Below are positions 3,431 to 41,434 of a DNA stretch of 49,673 nucleotides, one piece after another; the stretch's first letter is position 1; every line of letters starts with the position of its first letter. Source of the stretch: a virus (taxonomy: Duplodnaviria > Heunggongvirae > Uroviricota > Caudoviricetes); the IMG/VR virus record IMGVR_UViG_2778261214_000022, positions 1 through 49,673 of that record. The stretch is one strand, 5' to 3'. The translations under genes and the position numbers were made by a program. Below the pieces are notes generated by a model. It searched no databases and was not told where the DNA came from. It saw nothing but the letters and a program-made list of their open reading frames with translations.

Positions 3431-6110
3431 TTGTATATTCCTTAGCCCAGCGGGGCAGTGATAACGTCTTAATAGCTGGCCATTCATCGGTATTGAGGCA
3501 GTCAGCCAGGGTTCGCAGATTGCGGTGATATTCCTGCTGGCCTGCCAGTTTTGCTTCTTCGCCCATCATGAAAATTTCAACCGGATAACGTCCGCATTCA
3601 ACTGTTGTGCTGACGGCCAGAAAAACGAAAGTTGGTTGCACACCAAACTGTGCCTCATAACCGTCACTGTAGAATGCATCCTGAACGTGATAGCGGTATT
3701 CGTAATATGCGGTTTTGAATCGCTGAATATCCGCCGTAGTTTTCACGTCCACGATCCAGTGAAATTCAGGGATAATTTTGTCCGGACGGCACCGACACAA
3801 AATTCCCGTTTCCGGATCTTCCCAGTAAATTGATGATTCAGCGTGTCCGGCGCTTTCAACAAGCCATTGCCCCAGCGGCAAAGCCATAACGCTCTGATAC
3901 ATGAGTTCAATTTTCCGGCCTTCTTCCGCAGTGATAACTGTTTTTCCTGTGCTTGCGCATTCCATCAGAAACGTTTTCTCTTCTTCTTTTCCGGCGTTTG
4001 TACGGCGGTTAAATTCAGGTGCTACGATAAAGCGGTTACTGAATTCTTCCGGTTCAAGTACACGGCAGTGGAAAGCGGTTCCTAAATCGAGCGTTTTTGT
4101 CTTTGTAGTGTCCACGGGGGCATTTTTACGCCACAAATACAGTGCCGGAGTATCAGCAATGTCATCGAGCTGAGACTTACTGACACCGGGACCCGCGTGG
4201 TAATTCTCATTCGAAATTCCGTAATAAATACCTAGCTCTATGTCTTCTACGATTACGGGATCTGCGACTTCGCCAGTTTCATCACTGCAATCGCGATGCG
4301 GATCGCTGCCAGCATTCTCATTGTGCGGATGTTCAGCGCCTTCCATTTCCTCCGGATCTTTTTCCTTAGCTTCAACCTGATTCTCTTCACCGAATGTTTC
4401 CTGGTATGTTGCGTCGCCCATCACCGCACCACAGTCAGGGCAGTTATCCCCGCCAGTCTGACCGCAGGCATTGCAGACTTTTTCCACTTCCTGTTGCGCC
4501 ACTGGTTCAGGCTGTTTCGTTTCTGGCTCGTTTTGTAACGCATTTTGGCTGTTTTGTTCCGCTTTCTGGTCGTTTTGTTCCGATTCGGGCTGGTTCTGGT
4601 TCACAGAATCGCGGGTTTCAATCCCCTTAACCCATTTCGGATCATTCGGGTCGCTAATTCCGTCAACGAACTCACCGCGTGATGCAGCAAGAAACTTATC
4701 GGCGTCAGGCTGGTTGATATTGGCAGCCTGCATAATTTTGTTTACTTCGTCAGCGGTAACTTTTACCTGATTAACCGGATCTATCTGTGCCTGAGTATCC
4801 AGCGATTGCGTGTCCTGGCGATGTTCAGTTGTATCCGGCTCCATTGCTTCAGTCGTTGCCTGTTCATCTGCCAGTGCGCCAGACGGTTGCGATTTTTCTT
4901 CATCGTTTTTTTCTTCTTCTGTTTCTTGCCCGGCAGCCAGCTCGCGGTTTATTTCTTCCAGGATATCTTTTTCCGGTGTATGTCGTGCAGCAGCGAGGGT
5001 TTCCTTGCTGGGGTTCTCGTGATCAGTTTCCGTTAAGTGGGCGTTGATATACACCTGAAGGCGTACCCTGTAGAGATAAAGTTCAGGGTGGGCGCTCCGG
5101 ATAAGTGCAAAAATAGCGGCACGGGAATAATCCAGGATACCCGGGATTGCGCGAAGTGCTGCGGACCATTCTTTGAACGGACTTTCTTTCTTCCGGACGA
5201 CTTTTTTTGCGCGACGATAAACGCTGCCCGGGATTTCATAAATATTAAAATCCATCGGAAGGGTGGCCGCTGCAATCTCCACATCCAGCGTATCGAAGGT
5301 GTGTACTAAATTCGGATTGCGATCGGTTTTGTTCCCGCCGCCAGCATTAGCACCGGAAGCCGTGCGGGTGATACGCGAAACACGATTTCCTTTCATCCAC
5401 TCTTTTGTCAGCAGACCGCGATCGGTGTAGTCGGCGTCCAGGTATGCTTCGATAAAAGAGGTTATCAGTCCCAGGTCCGAATTTACGGGGGCGGGGAAAA
5501 CTTTGTCAGTGTCTCGCACCAGTTTGTGGAGATCGCGAATTTCCAGTGGTTCGAGTTGCGCTGCTTTATTTGAGATGGCCAGCGCGGCAACGGCGGGAAG
5601 TTTTTCATCCTGTGCGTTATGTAATGCGCGCAGTTCGTCCCGCGAAACGTGTGTGATCGGTTTTTCGCTGCCGTGCTGTGCCAGCCATCGAACAGGCAGA
5701 ATCTGACCTGAAACCGGCAGGAGCATGTTCTCCTCAATCTCAGCCATGTCTTCGCCGTTGACGTTGGTATTGTCAGTGCTGGCTGGTTTATCCTGAACAG
5801 AGGGTGAGGGCGCGATAAATACCATTGTGATGCCATCTTCCCCGCCTTTTTCGTAACGGTTGCAGAATTCCGTATCAAATACGCCTTCTGGCGGGAGGTC
5901 ATTAACAACGGGCAAATTGACGCGAACAGGTTTTTTGAAGTCATCTTCATCGTATCCAGCATCGTCAATCGCAACAGCACCACGGGAGATGGCAATGGAT
6001 AATTTTTTCGTTTCAGCCCAGTAAAAACCGCCTTTAATACCGAGACGTTTTCTTACTTTGTCATTTTTTGCTTCGTAATACAGTGGGTAAACTTGTTTAT
6101 CGGTGCTCAT
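3423..6110 (-). CDS. recE: Exodeoxyribonuclease VIII RecE
   Basis: 895 aa; C-terminal nuclease domain matches remembered Rac RecE ([48 protein letters not shown]). Confidence 0.95.
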
Positions 6111-17700: not shown

Positions 17701-17776
<76 letters not shown>

Positions 17777-17779
17777 TAT

Positions 17780-17851
<72 letters not shown>

Positions 17852-18347: not shown

Positions 18348-18737
18348 ATGTCTGAACCCTTATCCGGTTCCGGCACGGCTGCGGCGCTCGGCGGGGCGAC
18401 GGTATTCGGGCTGTTTACCGGAACGGATTTCGGGATTGTGTTTGGTGCATTCGCAGGGGCGCTGTTTGTGGCCACGATACCACAGAAGATTTCTGTCTGG
18501 CGTGTAGCAGCGCATTTTCTGGTGTCGTTCATTGTTGGCGTGCTGGGGGCGGATGTGATGGCGTCTTACCTGGTTGAAAAACTGAATCTCCACAGCACAT
18601 CTCTCGACGCGCTTTGCGCGGTACTGGTATCGGTGGTGTCGGTGAAGATTCTCTCATTCATCCACCAGCAGGATATCGCATCGCTGGTATCCGGGCTGTT
18701 CTCCCGTCTGCGGGGTGGAGGCGGTAATGTTAAGTAA
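18348..18737 (+). CDS. Holin-like membrane protein
   Basis: 129 aa, Gly/Ala-rich hydrophobic segments; AGGAG RBS; first gene of lysis cluster. Confidence 0.55.
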   Translation: MSEPLSGSGTAAALGGATVFGLFTGTDFGIVFGAFAGALFVATIPQKISVWRVAAHFLVSFIVGVLGADVMASYLVEKLNLHSTSLDALCAVLVSVVSVKILSFIHQQDIASLVSGLFSRLRGGGGNVK

Positions 18738-19002
18738 CCTTCCCGGATTACTGAATGTGGTGTTAAGCACGGTTATCGTGCTGACGCTCTTTTTTTATCG
18801 TCGTGGTAAGTCGAGACACAAACCGCTGATGTCGTGGCTGGCCTGGCTGCTGATGCTGCTTTATGCCTTTGCGCCGCTTTGTTATCTGTGTGGTCGCTTT
18901 CCACCCGGTAACTGGCTGGTCGTCCTGATTAACCTGGTGTTCTGCGTGCTGGTGATACGAGCACGCGGGAACGTATCAAAAATCCTTTCATTACGGAGGT
19001 GA
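18727..19002 (+). CDS. Lysis-associated small membrane protein (holin/antiholin-like)
   Basis: 91 aa with 2-3 hydrophobic helices; GGAGG RBS; between holin-like gene and endolysin. Confidence 0.5.
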   Translation: MLSNLPGLLNVVLSTVIVLTLFFYRRGKSRHKPLMSWLAWLLMLLYAFAPLCYLCGRFPPGNWLVVLINLVFCVLVIRARGNVSKILSLRR

Positions 19003-19004
19003 GT

Positions 19005-19382
19005 ATGCCCGGTAAATTCAGATTCAGTCGTCGAAGTGAGAAAAATCTGGAGGGCGTCAAACCACAGCTGGTTGCTGTTGTTCGTCGCGCTCTGGAGTTG
19101 TCGGAGGTTGATTTCGGTATTACGGAAGGCCTGCGCAGTAAGTATCGCCAGAAACAGCTGGTTGCAGAAGGGAAAAGCCAGACCATGAACAGCCGCCACC
19201 TGACCGGTGATGCGGTGGATGTTGTGGCCTACATTGGAAGCCAGGTGTCATGGGACTGGCCTCTGTACGAGAAAATCGCGCAGGCATTTAAGCAGGCTGC
19301 CGCAGAGCTGGGAACTGCCATCGAATGGGGCGGGGACTGGCGGACGCTTAAAGACGGCCCACATTTTCAATTGAAGCGATAG
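19005..19382 (+). CDS. Endolysin, peptidase M15 family (L-alanyl-D-glutamate peptidase type)
   Basis: 125 aa; metal-binding motif SRHLTGDAVDV, WDWPLY; GGAGG RBS. Confidence 0.85.
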   Translation: MPGKFRFSRRSEKNLEGVKPQLVAVVRRALELSEVDFGITEGLRSKYRQKQLVAEGKSQTMNSRHLTGDAVDVVAYIGSQVSWDWPLYEKIAQAFKQAAAELGTAIEWGGDWRTLKDGPHFQLKR

Positions 19383-38247: not shown

Positions 38248-39254
38248 TGCGTTATTACCGACTGGAAATTATTAATCCTAAAACAGGCAAGCCGCCAGTG
38301 GATAGCAATGGAAAACCCATTGGACCTTTTGATACCAGTGAAACACCAGGATGTGGGTTGCATGTTGAATTTGACTTTGAAGTAACCGGCCTGGATGTAG
38401 TCTGTTCGGGCACGATGCTGACGATCTATGGATTACCAATTGACATGCTGAAGCAAAGCGTAAGCTTGCAGGGTTGTCTGGTCCGTATGAAAGCAGGCTT
38501 TGTTCAGGGGTTACCACTGGCAAATAAGGATCAACAGGGGGAGGTAATCTATGGTGAAATTTATCTGGCCTATGCCAACTGGATCGGCACGAACCAGACT
38601 TTAAACCTGGTAATAAATCCAAGCATACGCAAAACCGATGACGGTAAACCTTTTTCAATTGAGGGGCAGGGGGAAGCAGGCGAAAGGGTTGGCGATGTTT
38701 TAGTCCGCGCTTTGCAAAAAGCATATCCCAATAAATTGATTGATTGCACAGTCAGCGACAACCTAGTTTTGCCAGAGCCGTGGACGGGTAAATATACAGA
38801 GATTGGTTCTCTGGCAATGGTCGTAAAAAACGCCTCTATTGCGATGATGCGTAATGAAAGGTATAGCGGAATCGCCATCAGTATTCTTTCCGACAGAATA
38901 CGAATCTACGATAACGCATCGGCAAAGTGGGGTGAGCCAAAAACAATTCATGCCCATGAACTGGTCGGGCAGCCGACATGGGTAGCGCCGTTTACCGTCA
39001 GCTTCAAATGCCCGATGAGGGGCGATATCAGATGTGGTGATGTGGTTAATTTGCCGGAGGGGCTTTATTCGGGCGCCGCGTCGATTGTGATGGCTAATAC
39101 AATGGCTCCTGGCGTTATCTCCAAAAACTCGACCACGTTTACCGGGAAATTTCTTGTGAAATCGGTCAGACACATTGGTTCGTATCTGACAGCCGATGGC
39201 GATGCCTGGGTGACGGTATTCGAGGCATATGCTGAGAACTGGGCGAGGGTGTAA
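38247..39254 (+). CDS. Baseplate hub-like protein
   Basis: 335 aa, TAATG coupling. Confidence 0.5.
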   Translation: MRYYRLEIINPKTGKPPVDSNGKPIGPFDTSETPGCGLHVEFDFEVTGLDVVCSGTMLTIYGLPIDMLKQSVSLQGCLVRMKAGFVQGLPLANKDQQGEVIYGEIYLAYANWIGTNQTLNLVINPSIRKTDDGKPFSIEGQGEAGERVGDVLVRALQKAYPNKLIDCTVSDNLVLPEPWTGKYTEIGSLAMVVKNASIAMMRNERYSGIAISILSDRIRIYDNASAKWGEPKTIHAHELVGQPTWVAPFTVSFKCPMRGDIRCGDVVNLPEGLYSGAASIVMANTMAPGVISKNSTTFTGKFLVKSVRHIGSYLTADGDAWVTVFEAYAENWARV

Positions 39255-39967
39255 TGTCAAACGCTCAAAAAATACCGTTTCTCCGAACGCTGTCGGAGAT
39301 GATGACCAGTTCTGGTAACCAGCAAGCCGAGCTTAAAGGCCGTGAATTGCCCTGCCATGTTGTCGATGTCAGCGGGCAGATAGTGACAGTTCAGTTTGAT
39401 ATGCTCCCCGAGGGGATCAACTTTCCGCAGATAACAATCCCTGTCGCCACATTCCCGTATATCCGTTACCCGATACAGCCGGGCGATCGAGGAGTAACAA
39501 TTGCCGCTGATGTATCCCTGCGCGGTGTGTCCGGGTTGGGAACTGGTATGGCGACGCTCTCTTACTCGATGTCGCTCACTCCCCTGTTTTTCGTGCCACT
39601 GGCAAACAAGGACTGGTCCGACGAAGATCCGCAAAAAATCGTTTTGTACGGTCCGGATGGCGCGATCCTCAAAACAGAGGACGGCAGTAGCTCGGTAACG
39701 GTGGCTCCGGAAGAAATCAGGCAAAAGTCGAAAGCTGTTTACCTTGAGGCCGAAGATATTTTCCTGAACGGGAAAATTCACCTCAACGGACCGATCGTCC
39801 AGGACAAAGCCCAGATGAAGGATACAACCGCTTCGCTGATTGGCCCTCTTAAGGTCGAGAAAGATGCAGTTATCAACGGCGTGAGCGCCAGCGGCCACAG
39901 CCACGATGTGACTGGCGTTCAAAGCGGCGGCAGCACGATCACGTCGAAGCAACCAAATCCGGGTTAA
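39254..39967 (+). CDS. Baseplate spike-like protein
   Basis: 237 aa. Confidence 0.5.
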   Translation: MSNAQKIPFLRTLSEMMTSSGNQQAELKGRELPCHVVDVSGQIVTVQFDMLPEGINFPQITIPVATFPYIRYPIQPGDRGVTIAADVSLRGVSGLGTGMATLSYSMSLTPLFFVPLANKDWSDEDPQKIVLYGPDGAILKTEDGSSSVTVAPEEIRQKSKAVYLEAEDIFLNGKIHLNGPIVQDKAQMKDTTASLIGPLKVEKDAVINGVSASGHSHDVTGVQSGGSTITSKQPNPG

Positions 39968-40006
39968 CCGGTTAATTTCACTTTAAATTCTATCCATAAA
40001 GCGAAA

Positions 40007-40037
40007 GCCCCGACTGGGCAAACAGTCGGGGCTTTTT
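40007..40037 (+). terminator. Strong intrinsic terminator ending baseplate operon
   Basis: gccccgactg-ggcaaa-cagtcggggc followed by TTTTT. Confidence 0.75.
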
Positions 40038-40069
40038 GTTTCTGACCTTGAATAAGGCAAGGAGAAGTC

Positions 40070-40207
40070 GTGTTTGATTTTAGCAAACTGATTCGGGAGA
40101 TTCGAGTTATGGCTGAAAAATTATCCACCTGGAAGTTTTTGCTTATTTGGTTGGTCTTTCTGATTCTTGCGTCTGGTTATTTTGTTGGTCAGATCCGATG
40201 GTGGTGA
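40070..40207 (+). CDS. Small single-pass membrane peptide ending RWW
   Basis: 45 aa from GTG with AAGGAG RBS (MFDFSKLIREIRVMAEKLSTWKFLLIWLVFLILASGYFVGQIRWW). Confidence 0.4.
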   Translation: MFDFSKLIREIRVMAEKLSTWKFLLIWLVFLILASGYFVGQIRWW

Positions 40208-40214
40208 GGGCGCG

Positions 40215-40562
40215 ATGAGAACATGGGGCCGCGTCAACGACGCGAACGGCAACAAAAAATGGGTTGCAGTAGAATCTGACACCAACGGTGATTTCTCCTA
40301 CGGCTGGCTGACGACGCTCATTCAGACGTTAAAGCTGGGGTTGGGGGAGTCGCCGTTTTACGCGAATTACGGCATTCCAGCGCAGCAGTGCATCGTGCAG
40401 CAGATTTACCCGGATTACTATGTGAACATGGTTCAGCAACAGTTTGCCGGGTATTTTGCATCATTGGCAATTTCAAAGGTAGATGGGGCAGAGAACCCCA
40501 CCTATAACATCGATGTTGTGTTTTTTAATGGGACCAGTTATCGGACGCAGGTTCCGGTTTGA
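40215..40562 (+). CDS. Hypothetical protein
   Basis: 115 aa from Met17; possibly a baseplate component or cargo. Confidence 0.55.
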   Translation: MRTWGRVNDANGNKKWVAVESDTNGDFSYGWLTTLIQTLKLGLGESPFYANYGIPAQQCIVQQIYPDYYVNMVQQQFAGYFASLAISKVDGAENPTYNIDVVFFNGTSYRTQVPV

Positions 40563-41101
40563 GGCAAGTTTTCGGGCATCAGTTGGGCCAGTGGCGTATT
40601 AAGAAGTTCATCGCGTGGCATGACAATCCATCCACTTTTGCGTAGTAAGTGAATTGCCCATTCTGTGGTGATAACTGAGCCTGATTTGTGGTGCTCAATG
40701 TGGGTAACCGATCCGTTTCTGACGCGCATGATGATGTCAACATTCAGAGGGGATTGTGTGCTGGTAGTTTCTTCGCGCAGCTTCTTCTCGCACTCGATGA
40801 AGTATCGGCGGATCTGGCGGCCTTTTTCGTTGCGTTCGACCATTGCCAGCTCTTTGGCGGTATCTAGGGTGAGGTGGTAGTCCTTGCGGTTGTGGCCTCC
40901 CCGGCCTTTTGCTTCCCGAATTTGGGAAGCAATCACATAGTCCTGATTTTCTACGAATTCATACTCGCTAAGTCGCTCGGTGATCCAAGTAGCAAAGCGC
41001 TTACCTATTTCGAGAAAGGCGTGCAGATCGCGAGCATTACAGAGAAGGATGGTTTCGTTTGAGACTGTTCCGTTGAAAACGGGGATCAGTTGGGTTGTCA
41101 T
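40538..41101 (-). CDS. AntA-type antirepressor-like protein
   Basis: 187 aa from internal Met with GAGGT RBS; N-terminal antirepressor-like region (ARDLHAFLEIGKRFATWITERLSEYEFVENQDYV ... LTLDTAKELAMVERNEKGRQIRRYF). Confidence 0.7.
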   Translation of the reverse strand: MTTQLIPVFNGTVSNETILLCNARDLHAFLEIGKRFATWITERLSEYEFVENQDYVIASQIREAKGRGGHNRKDYHLTLDTAKELAMVERNEKGRQIRRYFIECEKKLREETTSTQSPLNVDIIMRVRNGSVTHIEHHKSGSVITTEWAIHLLRKSGWIVMPRDELLNTPLAQLMPENLPQTGTCVR

Positions 41102-41434
41102 GATGACCTCTGTTTGTTTTCTTCGAATTACCACTATCTGAGTGGTGCCAGGAGGTTCGAAACGGCACAAACAAAGCCGCGGACTTATTCCCCTTTCGGG
41201 TGTTGTATTCGTCGCCCTCCCGACATTGATCGGGGATGTGACCGCACATGGTGCCATCACTAAATAGTAGGCATAAAAAATCCAACACTGACGGGGTTGG
41301 TTGTGACCGTGTTTGTTGAGGTTTCGACGCCTCATGCACATAATCATACTCAATAGCTCATGGATGTAAAGTCTGATTTGAATAGAGAAAAACCGTTGAT
41401 AAAATCCGCATGAACATTTGATAATGAGGTGATT

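Follow-up and report, generated by a model that had tools for sequence, protein, structure and literature searches.

The lysis of Gram-negative hosts by phages is taught as three steps, those of the holin, the endolysin and the spanin. Genes known as morons carry their own promoter and a downstream terminator, and proteins of the ElaB/YqjD class consist of a cytoplasmic N-terminal part, a single C-terminal membrane helix and a dibasic tip of a few residues. According to the annotation of the phage P22 record, the antisense RNA sar starts 1 nucleotide (nt) before the ATG of the gene ant, ends at the upstream hairpin and is transcribed from a promoter within the first 35 nt of ant. Here, we describe two short open reading frames (ORFs), designated pep1 and pep2, and compare them with these systems. 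Both are located in the Caudoviricetes record IMGVR_UViG_2778261214_000022, whose entire 49,673-nt sequence was analysed and is referred to as the window. The window is an Escherichia coli prophage, and both loci are 100% identical to strain C5.

In the initial annotation, pep1 and pep2 were noted as micro-proteins that share an RWW-stop end and are each encoded just after a terminator and a few nt upstream of the next gene. This description was borne out by the sequence. Both ORFs end in CGN-TGG-TGG-TGA, and the 9-mer TGGTGGTGA (tggtggtga) is present at two sites in the window, which are the ends of pep1 and pep2; shuffled windows contain it 0.31 times on average, and a count of two was reached in 3 of 100 shuffles. 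Hairpins were found upstream of both ORFs. The stop codon of pep1 is separated by 7 nt from the ATG (40215) of a gene for a protein of 115 amino acids (aa), and that of pep2 by 1 nt from the ATG (19980) of a 60-aa lipoprotein gene (TGAcATG). As described below, we conclude with high confidence that pep1 and pep2 are conserved genes for predicted tail-anchored micro-proteins, which are carried in exchangeable cassettes concentrated at the endolysin–spanin junction.

Conservation and coding capacity of pep1 and pep2

Residues 1–45 of pep1 match positions 1–45 of the phrog_6632 profile, which is a full-length match (E = 2.1e-28), and a pep1 relative from the Salmonella myovirus SEN34 matches the same family (E = 3.5e-24). 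When searched as a 57-aa ORF from the GTG at 19805, which contains the 50-aa form described below, pep2 matches phrog_4493 (E = 3.3e-23); the 37-aa form gives E = 7.4e-16. Both families, and families 1115 and 3246 to which phrog_4493 is related, are annotated as being of unknown function, as are all other PHROG families matched, and searches of Pfam and NCBIfam yielded no match for either peptide. The ratio of nonsynonymous to synonymous substitution rates (dN/dS) among IMG/VR alleles is 0.066 for pep1 and 0.063 for pep2 in frame and 1.5–4.7 in the other two frames. Among six deeply diverged pep1 genes, dN/dS is 0.19 and synonymous sites are saturated in the membrane helix.

Of 5,426 complete E. 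coli genomes, 902 contain pep1 DNA and 180 contain pep2 DNA. A profile search of 1.84 billion representative proteins identified 39 pep1 clusters at the 50% identity level, in which the N-terminal motif SKLIRELRxMxEKLPxW[KR]F is conserved and represents the most conserved part of the protein. Relatives were found in Escherichia, Salmonella, Yersinia and Cronobacter. The short length of the ORFs, and the fact that most pep1 copies in complete RefSeq E. coli genomes are without annotation, might be taken to indicate chance ORFs in intergenic spacers. However, this reading, to which we assign a negligible probability, is refuted by the conservation data, namely the family matches, purifying selection, conserved start codons and ribosome-binding sites, and hundreds of syntenic copies in other prophages. 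Therefore, both ORFs are genuine protein-coding genes, as the initial annotation had proposed in preferring small membrane peptides to chance ORFs.

Genomic contexts of the peptide genes

In a survey of the best 80 IMG/VR loci for each peptide, pep1 was located 1 nt upstream of the i-spanin gene Rz, just behind a SAR endolysin gene, at 59 loci, and 7 nt upstream of the 115-aa gene in the baseplate slot, as in the window, at 20. pep2 was located 1 nt upstream of the 60-aa lipoprotein gene, after an M15 or GH108 endolysin gene, at 74 loci and 1 nt upstream of Rz at three. The usual home of both peptides is the endolysin–spanin junction, and the baseplate V–W junction is a second hot spot. The two genes had been described as lying at unrelated positions. 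This holds for the window, in which pep2 belongs to the lysis cassette and pep1 to the baseplate operon; however, most relatives of pep1 are in lysis cassettes.

The endolysin encoded upstream of the cassettes is a SAR-lysozyme or an enzyme of the M15, GH108 or GH19 type, and the i-spanin downstream is of the lambda type (Rz) or the DUF2514/RzpQ type. The carriers are temperate phages of Escherichia and Salmonella, including Shiga toxin (Stx) 1 and Stx2 phages. In Salmonella phage SPN3UB, an unannotated pep1-like ORF lies between the endolysin gene and Rz, and in SEN34 a pep1-like ORF is found between the baseplate V gene and a W-like gene. Prophages of E. fergusonii contain a GH19 endolysin gene, a gene with a KWW end designated pep3, a terminator, pep1 and a DUF2514/RzpQ-type i-spanin gene in this order. 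pep3 (MKESSNKTNLNTGGKMSEKGADRAGVILAVAALISALALLVWAASWVKWW, phrog_12997; contig L289, 2756–2908) is located upstream of the pep1 cassette and ends in the junction KWW-TGA-t-ATG, of which the ATG opens only a short remnant ORF. In phage 933W (contig L297, 3439–3570), an unannotated 43-aa single-helix ORF of phrog_4906 ends 7 nt before the ATG of Rz, following an ant gene inserted between R and Rz; a related 43-aa ORF is present upstream of Rz in PhiR12 (contig L295, 2040–2171). Thus, pep1, pep2 and at least two further families of small membrane peptides occupy the endolysin–spanin junction.

The baseplate V–W slot of a degenerate prophage (contig L288, 2732–3841) contains a tandem array of small membrane ORFs, which consists of two pep1-like ORFs (stop codons TAG and TAA), membrane ORFs of 49 and 55 aa without a PHROG match, and a pep2-like ORF. 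A scan of viral contigs for the junction pattern CGNTGGTGGTGANATG yielded a handful of informative variants, and 78 of the 120 matches were due to chance. In the Rz context of pep2 (contigs L164–L166, L209 and L210), an 8-codon mini-ORF (ATG GGT AGG GAG GTA CTT TCC CTG TGA) is present between the shared leader and pep2, approximately 30 nt upstream, and its stop codon overlaps the GTG start of pep2 (GTGA). A named small protein of K-12 at the R–Rz junction was also considered as a counterpart and rejected, since R and Rz overlap directly in DLP12 and Qin and no peptide is encoded there.

Start codons and possible alternative forms

The 37-aa form of pep2, which is the form annotated by most pipelines and was given in the initial annotation, probably does not represent the only or main product. 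The codon at 19826, 13 codons upstream, is GTG in the window, ATG in contig L110 and TTG in contig L128, and in 60-aa relatives of pep2 it is an ATG directly behind the strong ribosome-binding site AAGGGAGAAC (AAGGGAG). Because of these variants and because the PHROG profile covers the extension, the product of pep2 is most likely the 50-aa protein starting at GTG 19826, as judged from sequence comparison. This long form consists of a 13-residue extension, MGKYKRFFLRLSI, with four basic and no acidic residues, followed by MKGIE and the remainder of the short form. The ATG at 19865 corresponds to Met14 of the long form and is preceded by GAGG 9 nt upstream. pep1 also has a methionine at position 14 that is invariant or nearly so in the family alignment, and 32-aa forms of pep1 are annotated by some pipelines. 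Therefore, both genes may give a long and a short form. The two ORFs, and the corrected start of pep2, merit annotation.

Membrane topology and the RWW tip

Each peptide comprises 45–50 residues, with a basic N-terminal part of 23–28 residues and a hydrophobic helix at the very C-terminus. Structure prediction yielded helices only for both peptides (residues 4–17 and 20–44 in pep1, and a helical model for pep2). The single hydrophobic helix noted in the initial annotation was thus confirmed by topology and structure predictions, which place it at the extreme C-terminus. Both are predicted to be tail-anchored peptides with the N-terminus inside, and R-W-W are the only residues after the membrane helix. 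The RWW end recurs in both peptides and in many relatives, but it is not universal, as the tip is [RK]WW in most and not all members of the wider pep1 family.

The stop–start junctions are likely to provide translational coupling to the next gene. The sequence GGTGGTGA is close to GGAGGTGA and lies just before the next start codon, and we therefore considered the possibility that the ORFs are pure coupling leaders, which would reload ribosomes past the terminator and supply the ribosome-binding site of the next gene, the peptide being irrelevant and RWW-stop a by-product of GGTGGTGA. In agreement with this reading, GGTGGTGA differs by one mismatch from GGAGGTGA and TGGTGGTGA by one mismatch from the extended Shine–Dalgarno sequence, TGGTGGTGA is positioned 1–7 nt before the next ATG in most contexts, GGTGGTGAGGG at the end of pep1 is the ribosome-binding site of the 115-aa gene, and at loci without the peptide a separate ribosome-binding site precedes the downstream gene. 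However, dN/dS is approximately 0.06–0.19 from one end of the ORF to the other, synonymous change having reached saturation in the membrane helix, and the most conserved part of the protein, the N-terminal motif, is far from the junction. In addition, RWW is retained with a TAA stop codon in SPN3UB and with TAG and TAA stop codons in the array members of contig L288, which have no coupled gene. The codon for Arg does not belong to any ribosome-binding site and shows synonymous variation (CGA, CGC or CGT), and the spacing from RWW-stop to the next gene is 1, 7 or 15 nt, or there is no next gene. We therefore consider a pure coupling leader very improbable. Because of the TAA and TAG stop codons, uncoupled members, variable spacing and synonymous Arg codons, the sequence comparison indicates that RWW is a protein-level feature rather than a by-product of a ribosome-binding site, and it plausibly serves as an interfacial anchor at the periplasmic face.

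Relationship between pep1 and pep2

The initial annotation proposed a family of small membrane peptides and suggested alignment of the two members. No alignment of pep1 and pep2 was obtained by BLASTP, and hhalign gave a probability of 20.5% with shallow and 49.5% with deeper alignments, in both cases confined to the last 13–14 columns. Furthermore, the two peptides belong to separate PHROG families (6632 and 4493). A proven single homologous family was therefore rejected, as the similarity does not extend over most of the length.

The proposal nevertheless stands in the sense of one positional and architectural class. Both peptides occur in the Rz slot and in the array of contig L288, and the pep2 copies upstream of Rz have a terminator identical to that of pep1 and the same leader, tgaccttgaataaggcaagggagaa. 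They are similar in size, Met14 is preceded by 13 residues in both, and the cytoplasmic part is basic and is followed by the membrane helix at the C-terminus with its [RK]WW tip; in addition, variant members of both families have the same alternative tail, SPxx[FY]GLA[KR]. pep1 and pep2 are thus exchangeable occupants of one slot and represent one functional class, for which common descent is possible.

Terminators, leaders and putative antisense RNAs

The cassettes have a common order, that is, a hairpin terminator, a conserved leader with a ribosome-binding site, a GTG start codon, the ORF, and a stop codon against the next start codon (Table 1). The pep1 hairpin shows compensatory changes among homologues and is flanked by an A-tract and a T-tract, so that it is potentially bidirectional. 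The pep2 hairpin has a strong U-run on both strands, and its minus-strand RNA has a folding energy of −31.9 kcal/mol (z = −5.1). The leader ACCTTGAnnAAGGCAAGG(G)AGAA has been kept in six diverged cassettes. A promoter scan of the pep1 locus detected no sense-strand promoter between the terminator and the ORF.

Promoter-like sequences were found on the minus strand within the first codons of both ORFs. The putative −10 site of pep1, TGCTAA[A/T/G]AT, has been kept in the six diverged cassettes, and AAGTATAAA, which underlies the promoter-like site of pep2, is invariant in 36 distinct cassette sequences in which nearby codons vary. Synonymous divergence in pep1 is 0.34 for codons 2–13 versus 0.79 for codons 24–45. 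The RNAs predicted to start at these sites would consist of a 5′ hairpin containing an anti-ribosome-binding-site sequence, followed by the terminator hairpin. By analogy, this suggests a cassette whose 5′ half is laid out like the sar/ant module of P22, which provides a coherent lead.

Possible functions of the peptides

We tentatively favour, with chances that we regard as close to even, the explanation that the peptides are late-expressed accessory peptides of the lysis step, coupled to the next gene and possibly gated by an antisense RNA. As there is a terminator upstream and no sense promoter, they would be made late from the Q-antiterminated operon. Anchored in the inner membrane with a cytoplasmic N-terminus, they would then, through contacts between membrane helices, modulate a membrane step of lysis, which may be holin triggering, SAR-endolysin release or spanin action. 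By stop–start coupling, ribosomes that translate the peptide would also be passed on to the spanin or lipoprotein gene. Expression of the peptide and of the gene coupled to it may be kept silent by a sar-like antisense RNA, which would run from the promoter in the first codons to the upstream hairpin, for as long as this RNA is not outnumbered by late transcripts.

Several observations weigh against this explanation. A relative of pep2 precedes a Dam methylase gene and pep1 in the window is in a baseplate operon; therefore, the link to lysis is statistical, not obligatory. The peptides are absent from DLP12 and Qin of K-12, phiP27 and pPE4 despite the same endolysin–spanin/lipoprotein genes, which indicates that they are accessory and dispensable. 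With regard to antisense control, the minus-strand promoter of pep1 has a weak −35 and was missed by the promoter scan, promoter-like matches of the quality of the pep2 site occur approximately once per kb in shuffled sequences, and a constraint on translation initiation or recent recombination is another possible reason for the low synonymous divergence of the first codons. The Rfam model for sar (RF00262) gave 24.4 bits at 40000–40066 (−) and 20.5 bits at 19736–19839 (−), both below the gathering score of 43 bits, with most of the score coming from the hairpin; at other loci, the model matches the hairpin only. No Rfam match reached the threshold for either cassette, and the matches to sar, OhsC and the rimP leader were hairpin-driven. 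Finally, a literature search found no paper containing the peptide sequences. They are not in the supplements of the small-gene study of enterohaemorrhagic E. coli Sakai, and nothing relevant was found in a paper on Stx-phage architecture, a spanin survey, a microproteome preprint or the literature on sar and lysis. The sequences themselves are not new, as they are already in databases as hypothetical proteins and as PHROGs of unknown function; we found no description of the recurrent endolysin–spanin position, the interchange of several families there, the [RK]WW tail-anchor design or the sar-like leader.

One alternative is that the cassettes are selfish morons resembling type I toxin–antitoxin systems, in which a membrane-damaging peptide and a minus-strand RNA antitoxin mediate addiction or abortive infection and have no role in lysis by the phage itself. 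The classical layout of such systems, in which the peptide is small, hydrophobic and single-helical and a cis-antisense RNA covers its ribosome-binding site, agrees with the peptides and the predicted antisense RNAs, the cassettes are mobile and found in unrelated slots and tandem arrays, remote relatives occur among ParE/RelB/HicAB modules beside terminase genes, and the window itself carries the RalR/RalA type I pair. We nevertheless regard this alternative as unlikely. Without a sense promoter between the terminator and the ORF, the mRNA must derive from readthrough of the late operon, the antisense RNA is a prediction, no match to known toxin or antitoxin families was obtained in Pfam, NCBIfam, PADLOC or, at threshold, Rfam, and the strong preference for the endolysin–spanin junction is left unexplained.

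Still less probable in our opinion is a lysis-independent peptide for superinfection exclusion or host modulation, which would bind a host inner-membrane protein as in the case of HK97 gp15. Small single-helix proteins often regulate larger membrane proteins, the HK97 gp15 moron has a position similar to that of pep1, and pep1 lies inside the tail/baseplate operon in both the window and SEN34. However, the terminator directly upstream and the lack of a detectable promoter speak against prophage expression, lysis cassettes contain most of the copies, and none of the PADLOC defence models matched pep1, pep2, pep3 or the 60-aa lipoprotein.

If the favoured role in lysis is extended to Shiga-toxin and other lambdoid phages, these would contain an overlooked lysis-cassette regulator at the endolysin–spanin junction, in which interchangeable [RK]WW dual-start micro-proteins and a sar-like antisense RNA gating the peptide and the coupled spanin would set the threshold or timing of the last lysis steps and of toxin release. 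This wider proposal is speculative, and we consider it unlikely in its full form. Control of lysis timing or spanin expression by the peptides would, if it takes place, have consequences for the burst size and the release of Shiga toxin. In relation to the three-step scheme of lysis, the genes are a fourth class, tiny and conserved, which lies between the endolysin and spanin steps in approximately one-sixth of complete E. coli genomes and was overlooked probably because the K-12 prophages lack the peptides and annotation pipelines skip the ORFs. Even without a role in lysis, the loci are a clear-cut example of micro-gene cassettes that are exchangeable, and the antisense design of P22 sar may have found a new use in them.

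Neighbouring genes and other features of the window

Features of the two loci are listed in Table 1. The 60-aa lipoprotein (19980–20162) has a mature part of approximately 30 aa with three Cys residues, and no i-spanin-like gene is recognizable in the lysis cassette of the window; the lipoprotein could be an unusual outer-membrane disruption factor. We considered pep2 as its i-spanin partner and rejected this candidate, as the peptide has no periplasmic domain and phiP27 and pPE4 carry the lipoprotein alone. Over pep1 and its flanks, the identity to phage Rac-SA53 is approximately 96%, as is that to the record PP818812.1, which bears the name Actinobacillus phage pPE4 (vB_Apl-pPE4). In view of this identity to an E. 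coli prophage, the host label of the latter looks doubtful.

Upstream of the lysis cassette, two tRNA genes are located at 17701–17851 (+). Rfam identified the antitoxin small RNA (sRNA) RalA of the RalR/RalA pair at 2169–2347 (+; 212.8 bits) and the chromosomal sRNA pair SraC/RyeA and SdsR/RyeB at 463–607 (179 and 118 bits), which probably marks the prophage boundary. A match to sRNA-Xcc1 above the threshold (70.9 bits) is present at 41139–41224 (−), just upstream of the coding region of an AntA-type antirepressor and inside a long ORF call (40538–41353); contig L288 also contains such a match (4759–4844, −).

Table 1. Features of the pep1 and pep2 loci in the window
Feature	Position	Strand	Description
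pep1	40070..40207	+	MFDFSKLIREIRVMAEKLSTWKFLLIWLVFLILASGYFVGQIRWW, phrog_6632; GTG start, 45 aa, RWW-TGA end; predicted tail-anchored membrane micro-protein
Internal ATG of pep1 (Met14)	40109..40111	+	GGAG 9 nt upstream, conserved in alignment; possible second start (32-aa form)
Ribosome-binding site of pep1, AAGGAG	40059..40064	+	5 nt before GTG; within conserved leader ACCTTGAnnAAGGCAAGG(G)AGAA
Hairpin terminator of pep1	40003..40036		14-bp stem, 8 GC pairs, T-run; −28.6 kcal/mol, z = −6.1
Putative extended −10 of pep1, TGCTAAAAT	40077..40085	-	Inside pep1 codons 3–6; read from sequence
Putative sar-like cis-antisense RNA of pep1	39996..40069	-	Covers ribosome-binding site, ends at hairpin; hypothetical
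115-aa gene	40215..40562	+	phrog_7986; between baseplate V-like (39254–39967) and baseplate J-like genes
pep2, long form	19826..19978	+	MGKYKRFFLRLSIMKGIEVETPASLDLTRAAAFAIRLVAVAVLIWAVRWW, phrog_4493; 50 aa; GGAG at 19813–19816; profile spans N-terminal extension
pep2, 37-aa form	19865..19978	+	ATG start; VLIWAVRWW end
Hairpin terminator of pep2	19735..19779		Partly detected by scan; plus strand −21.8 kcal/mol, z = −3.4
Promoter-like site of pep2, TGGACA-18-TATACT	19833..19862	-	First codons of long pep2; 10/12 matches
Putative antisense RNA of pep2	19733..19826	-	Covers ribosome-binding site and start; hypothetical
60-aa lipoprotein gene	19980..20162	+	phrog_7528; lipobox LVGC; position where lambdoid phages have spanin genes
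Holin gene	18715–19002	+	Part of lysis cassette holding pep2 (profile match)
M15 endolysin gene	18999–19382	+	Part of lysis cassette holding pep2 (profile match)

Comparison with known systems

Holin/antiholin pairs with dual starts, such as lambda S105/S107 and phage 21 S68/S71, resemble pep1 and pep2 in that they are small membrane proteins of lysis cassettes. They are translated from two starts in the same frame that have separate ribosome-binding sites, which is possible for the peptides as well, and their longer form is more positively charged, as with the pep2 extension. However, the peptides have a single membrane helix at the extreme C-terminus, their extension comprises 13 residues rather than 2–3, and the gene lies after the endolysin gene, not before it, in phages that already encode holins. 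Neither peptide matched a holin family in Pfam or NCBIfam, and the window contains a separate holin gene (Table 1).

The toxins of type I systems (Hok/Sok, ShoB/OhsC and Ibs/Sib) are likewise hydrophobic single-helix peptides of ≤50 residues, with a small antisense RNA, predicted in the present case, over the translation initiation region, and coupling as a means of control has a counterpart in mok–hok. In contrast, the mRNA of the peptides is without its own promoter, the cassette is embedded in phage late operons, and there is no match at the level of sequence or model, as the 18.9 bits obtained with OhsC (E = 0.88) represent noise.

Spanins, both the Rz/Rz1 and the unimolecular types, are direct neighbours of the peptides and share with them inner-membrane anchoring with the N-terminus inside, which in the case of the peptides is predicted. 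An i-spanin needs a periplasmic coiled-coil that reaches its outer-membrane partner, whereas the peptides expose three residues only; structure and topology predictions gave neither pep1 nor pep2 an N-terminal membrane helix followed by a periplasmic coiled-coil.

Small membrane proteins of tail operons of the HK97 gp15 type are encoded by genes inserted between structural genes, as is pep1; in contrast to a moron, however, the terminator of pep1 lies upstream and no promoter was seen. The ElaB/YqjD class has the same tail-anchored layout as that predicted for pep1 and pep2, but the latter are much shorter and phage-encoded, have the RWW tip and show no sequence similarity to this class.

The P22 sar/ant module, which occupies the arc–ant intergenic region of immI, differs from the cassettes in its payload, which is a 300-aa antirepressor instead of a membrane peptide of 45–50 aa, and the antisense RNAs of the cassettes are predicted ones with scores below the gathering threshold. 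The arrangement is nevertheless alike, with a hairpin that is similar in sequence, a short leader with a ribosome-binding site, a start codon and a minus-strand promoter, putative in the cassettes, that overlaps the beginning of the ORF (first ~35 nt). The −10 hexamer of the sar promoter Psar, TATACT, begins at base 7 of ant, and the identical hexamer at base 8 of pep2, when the first base of the start codon is counted as 1.

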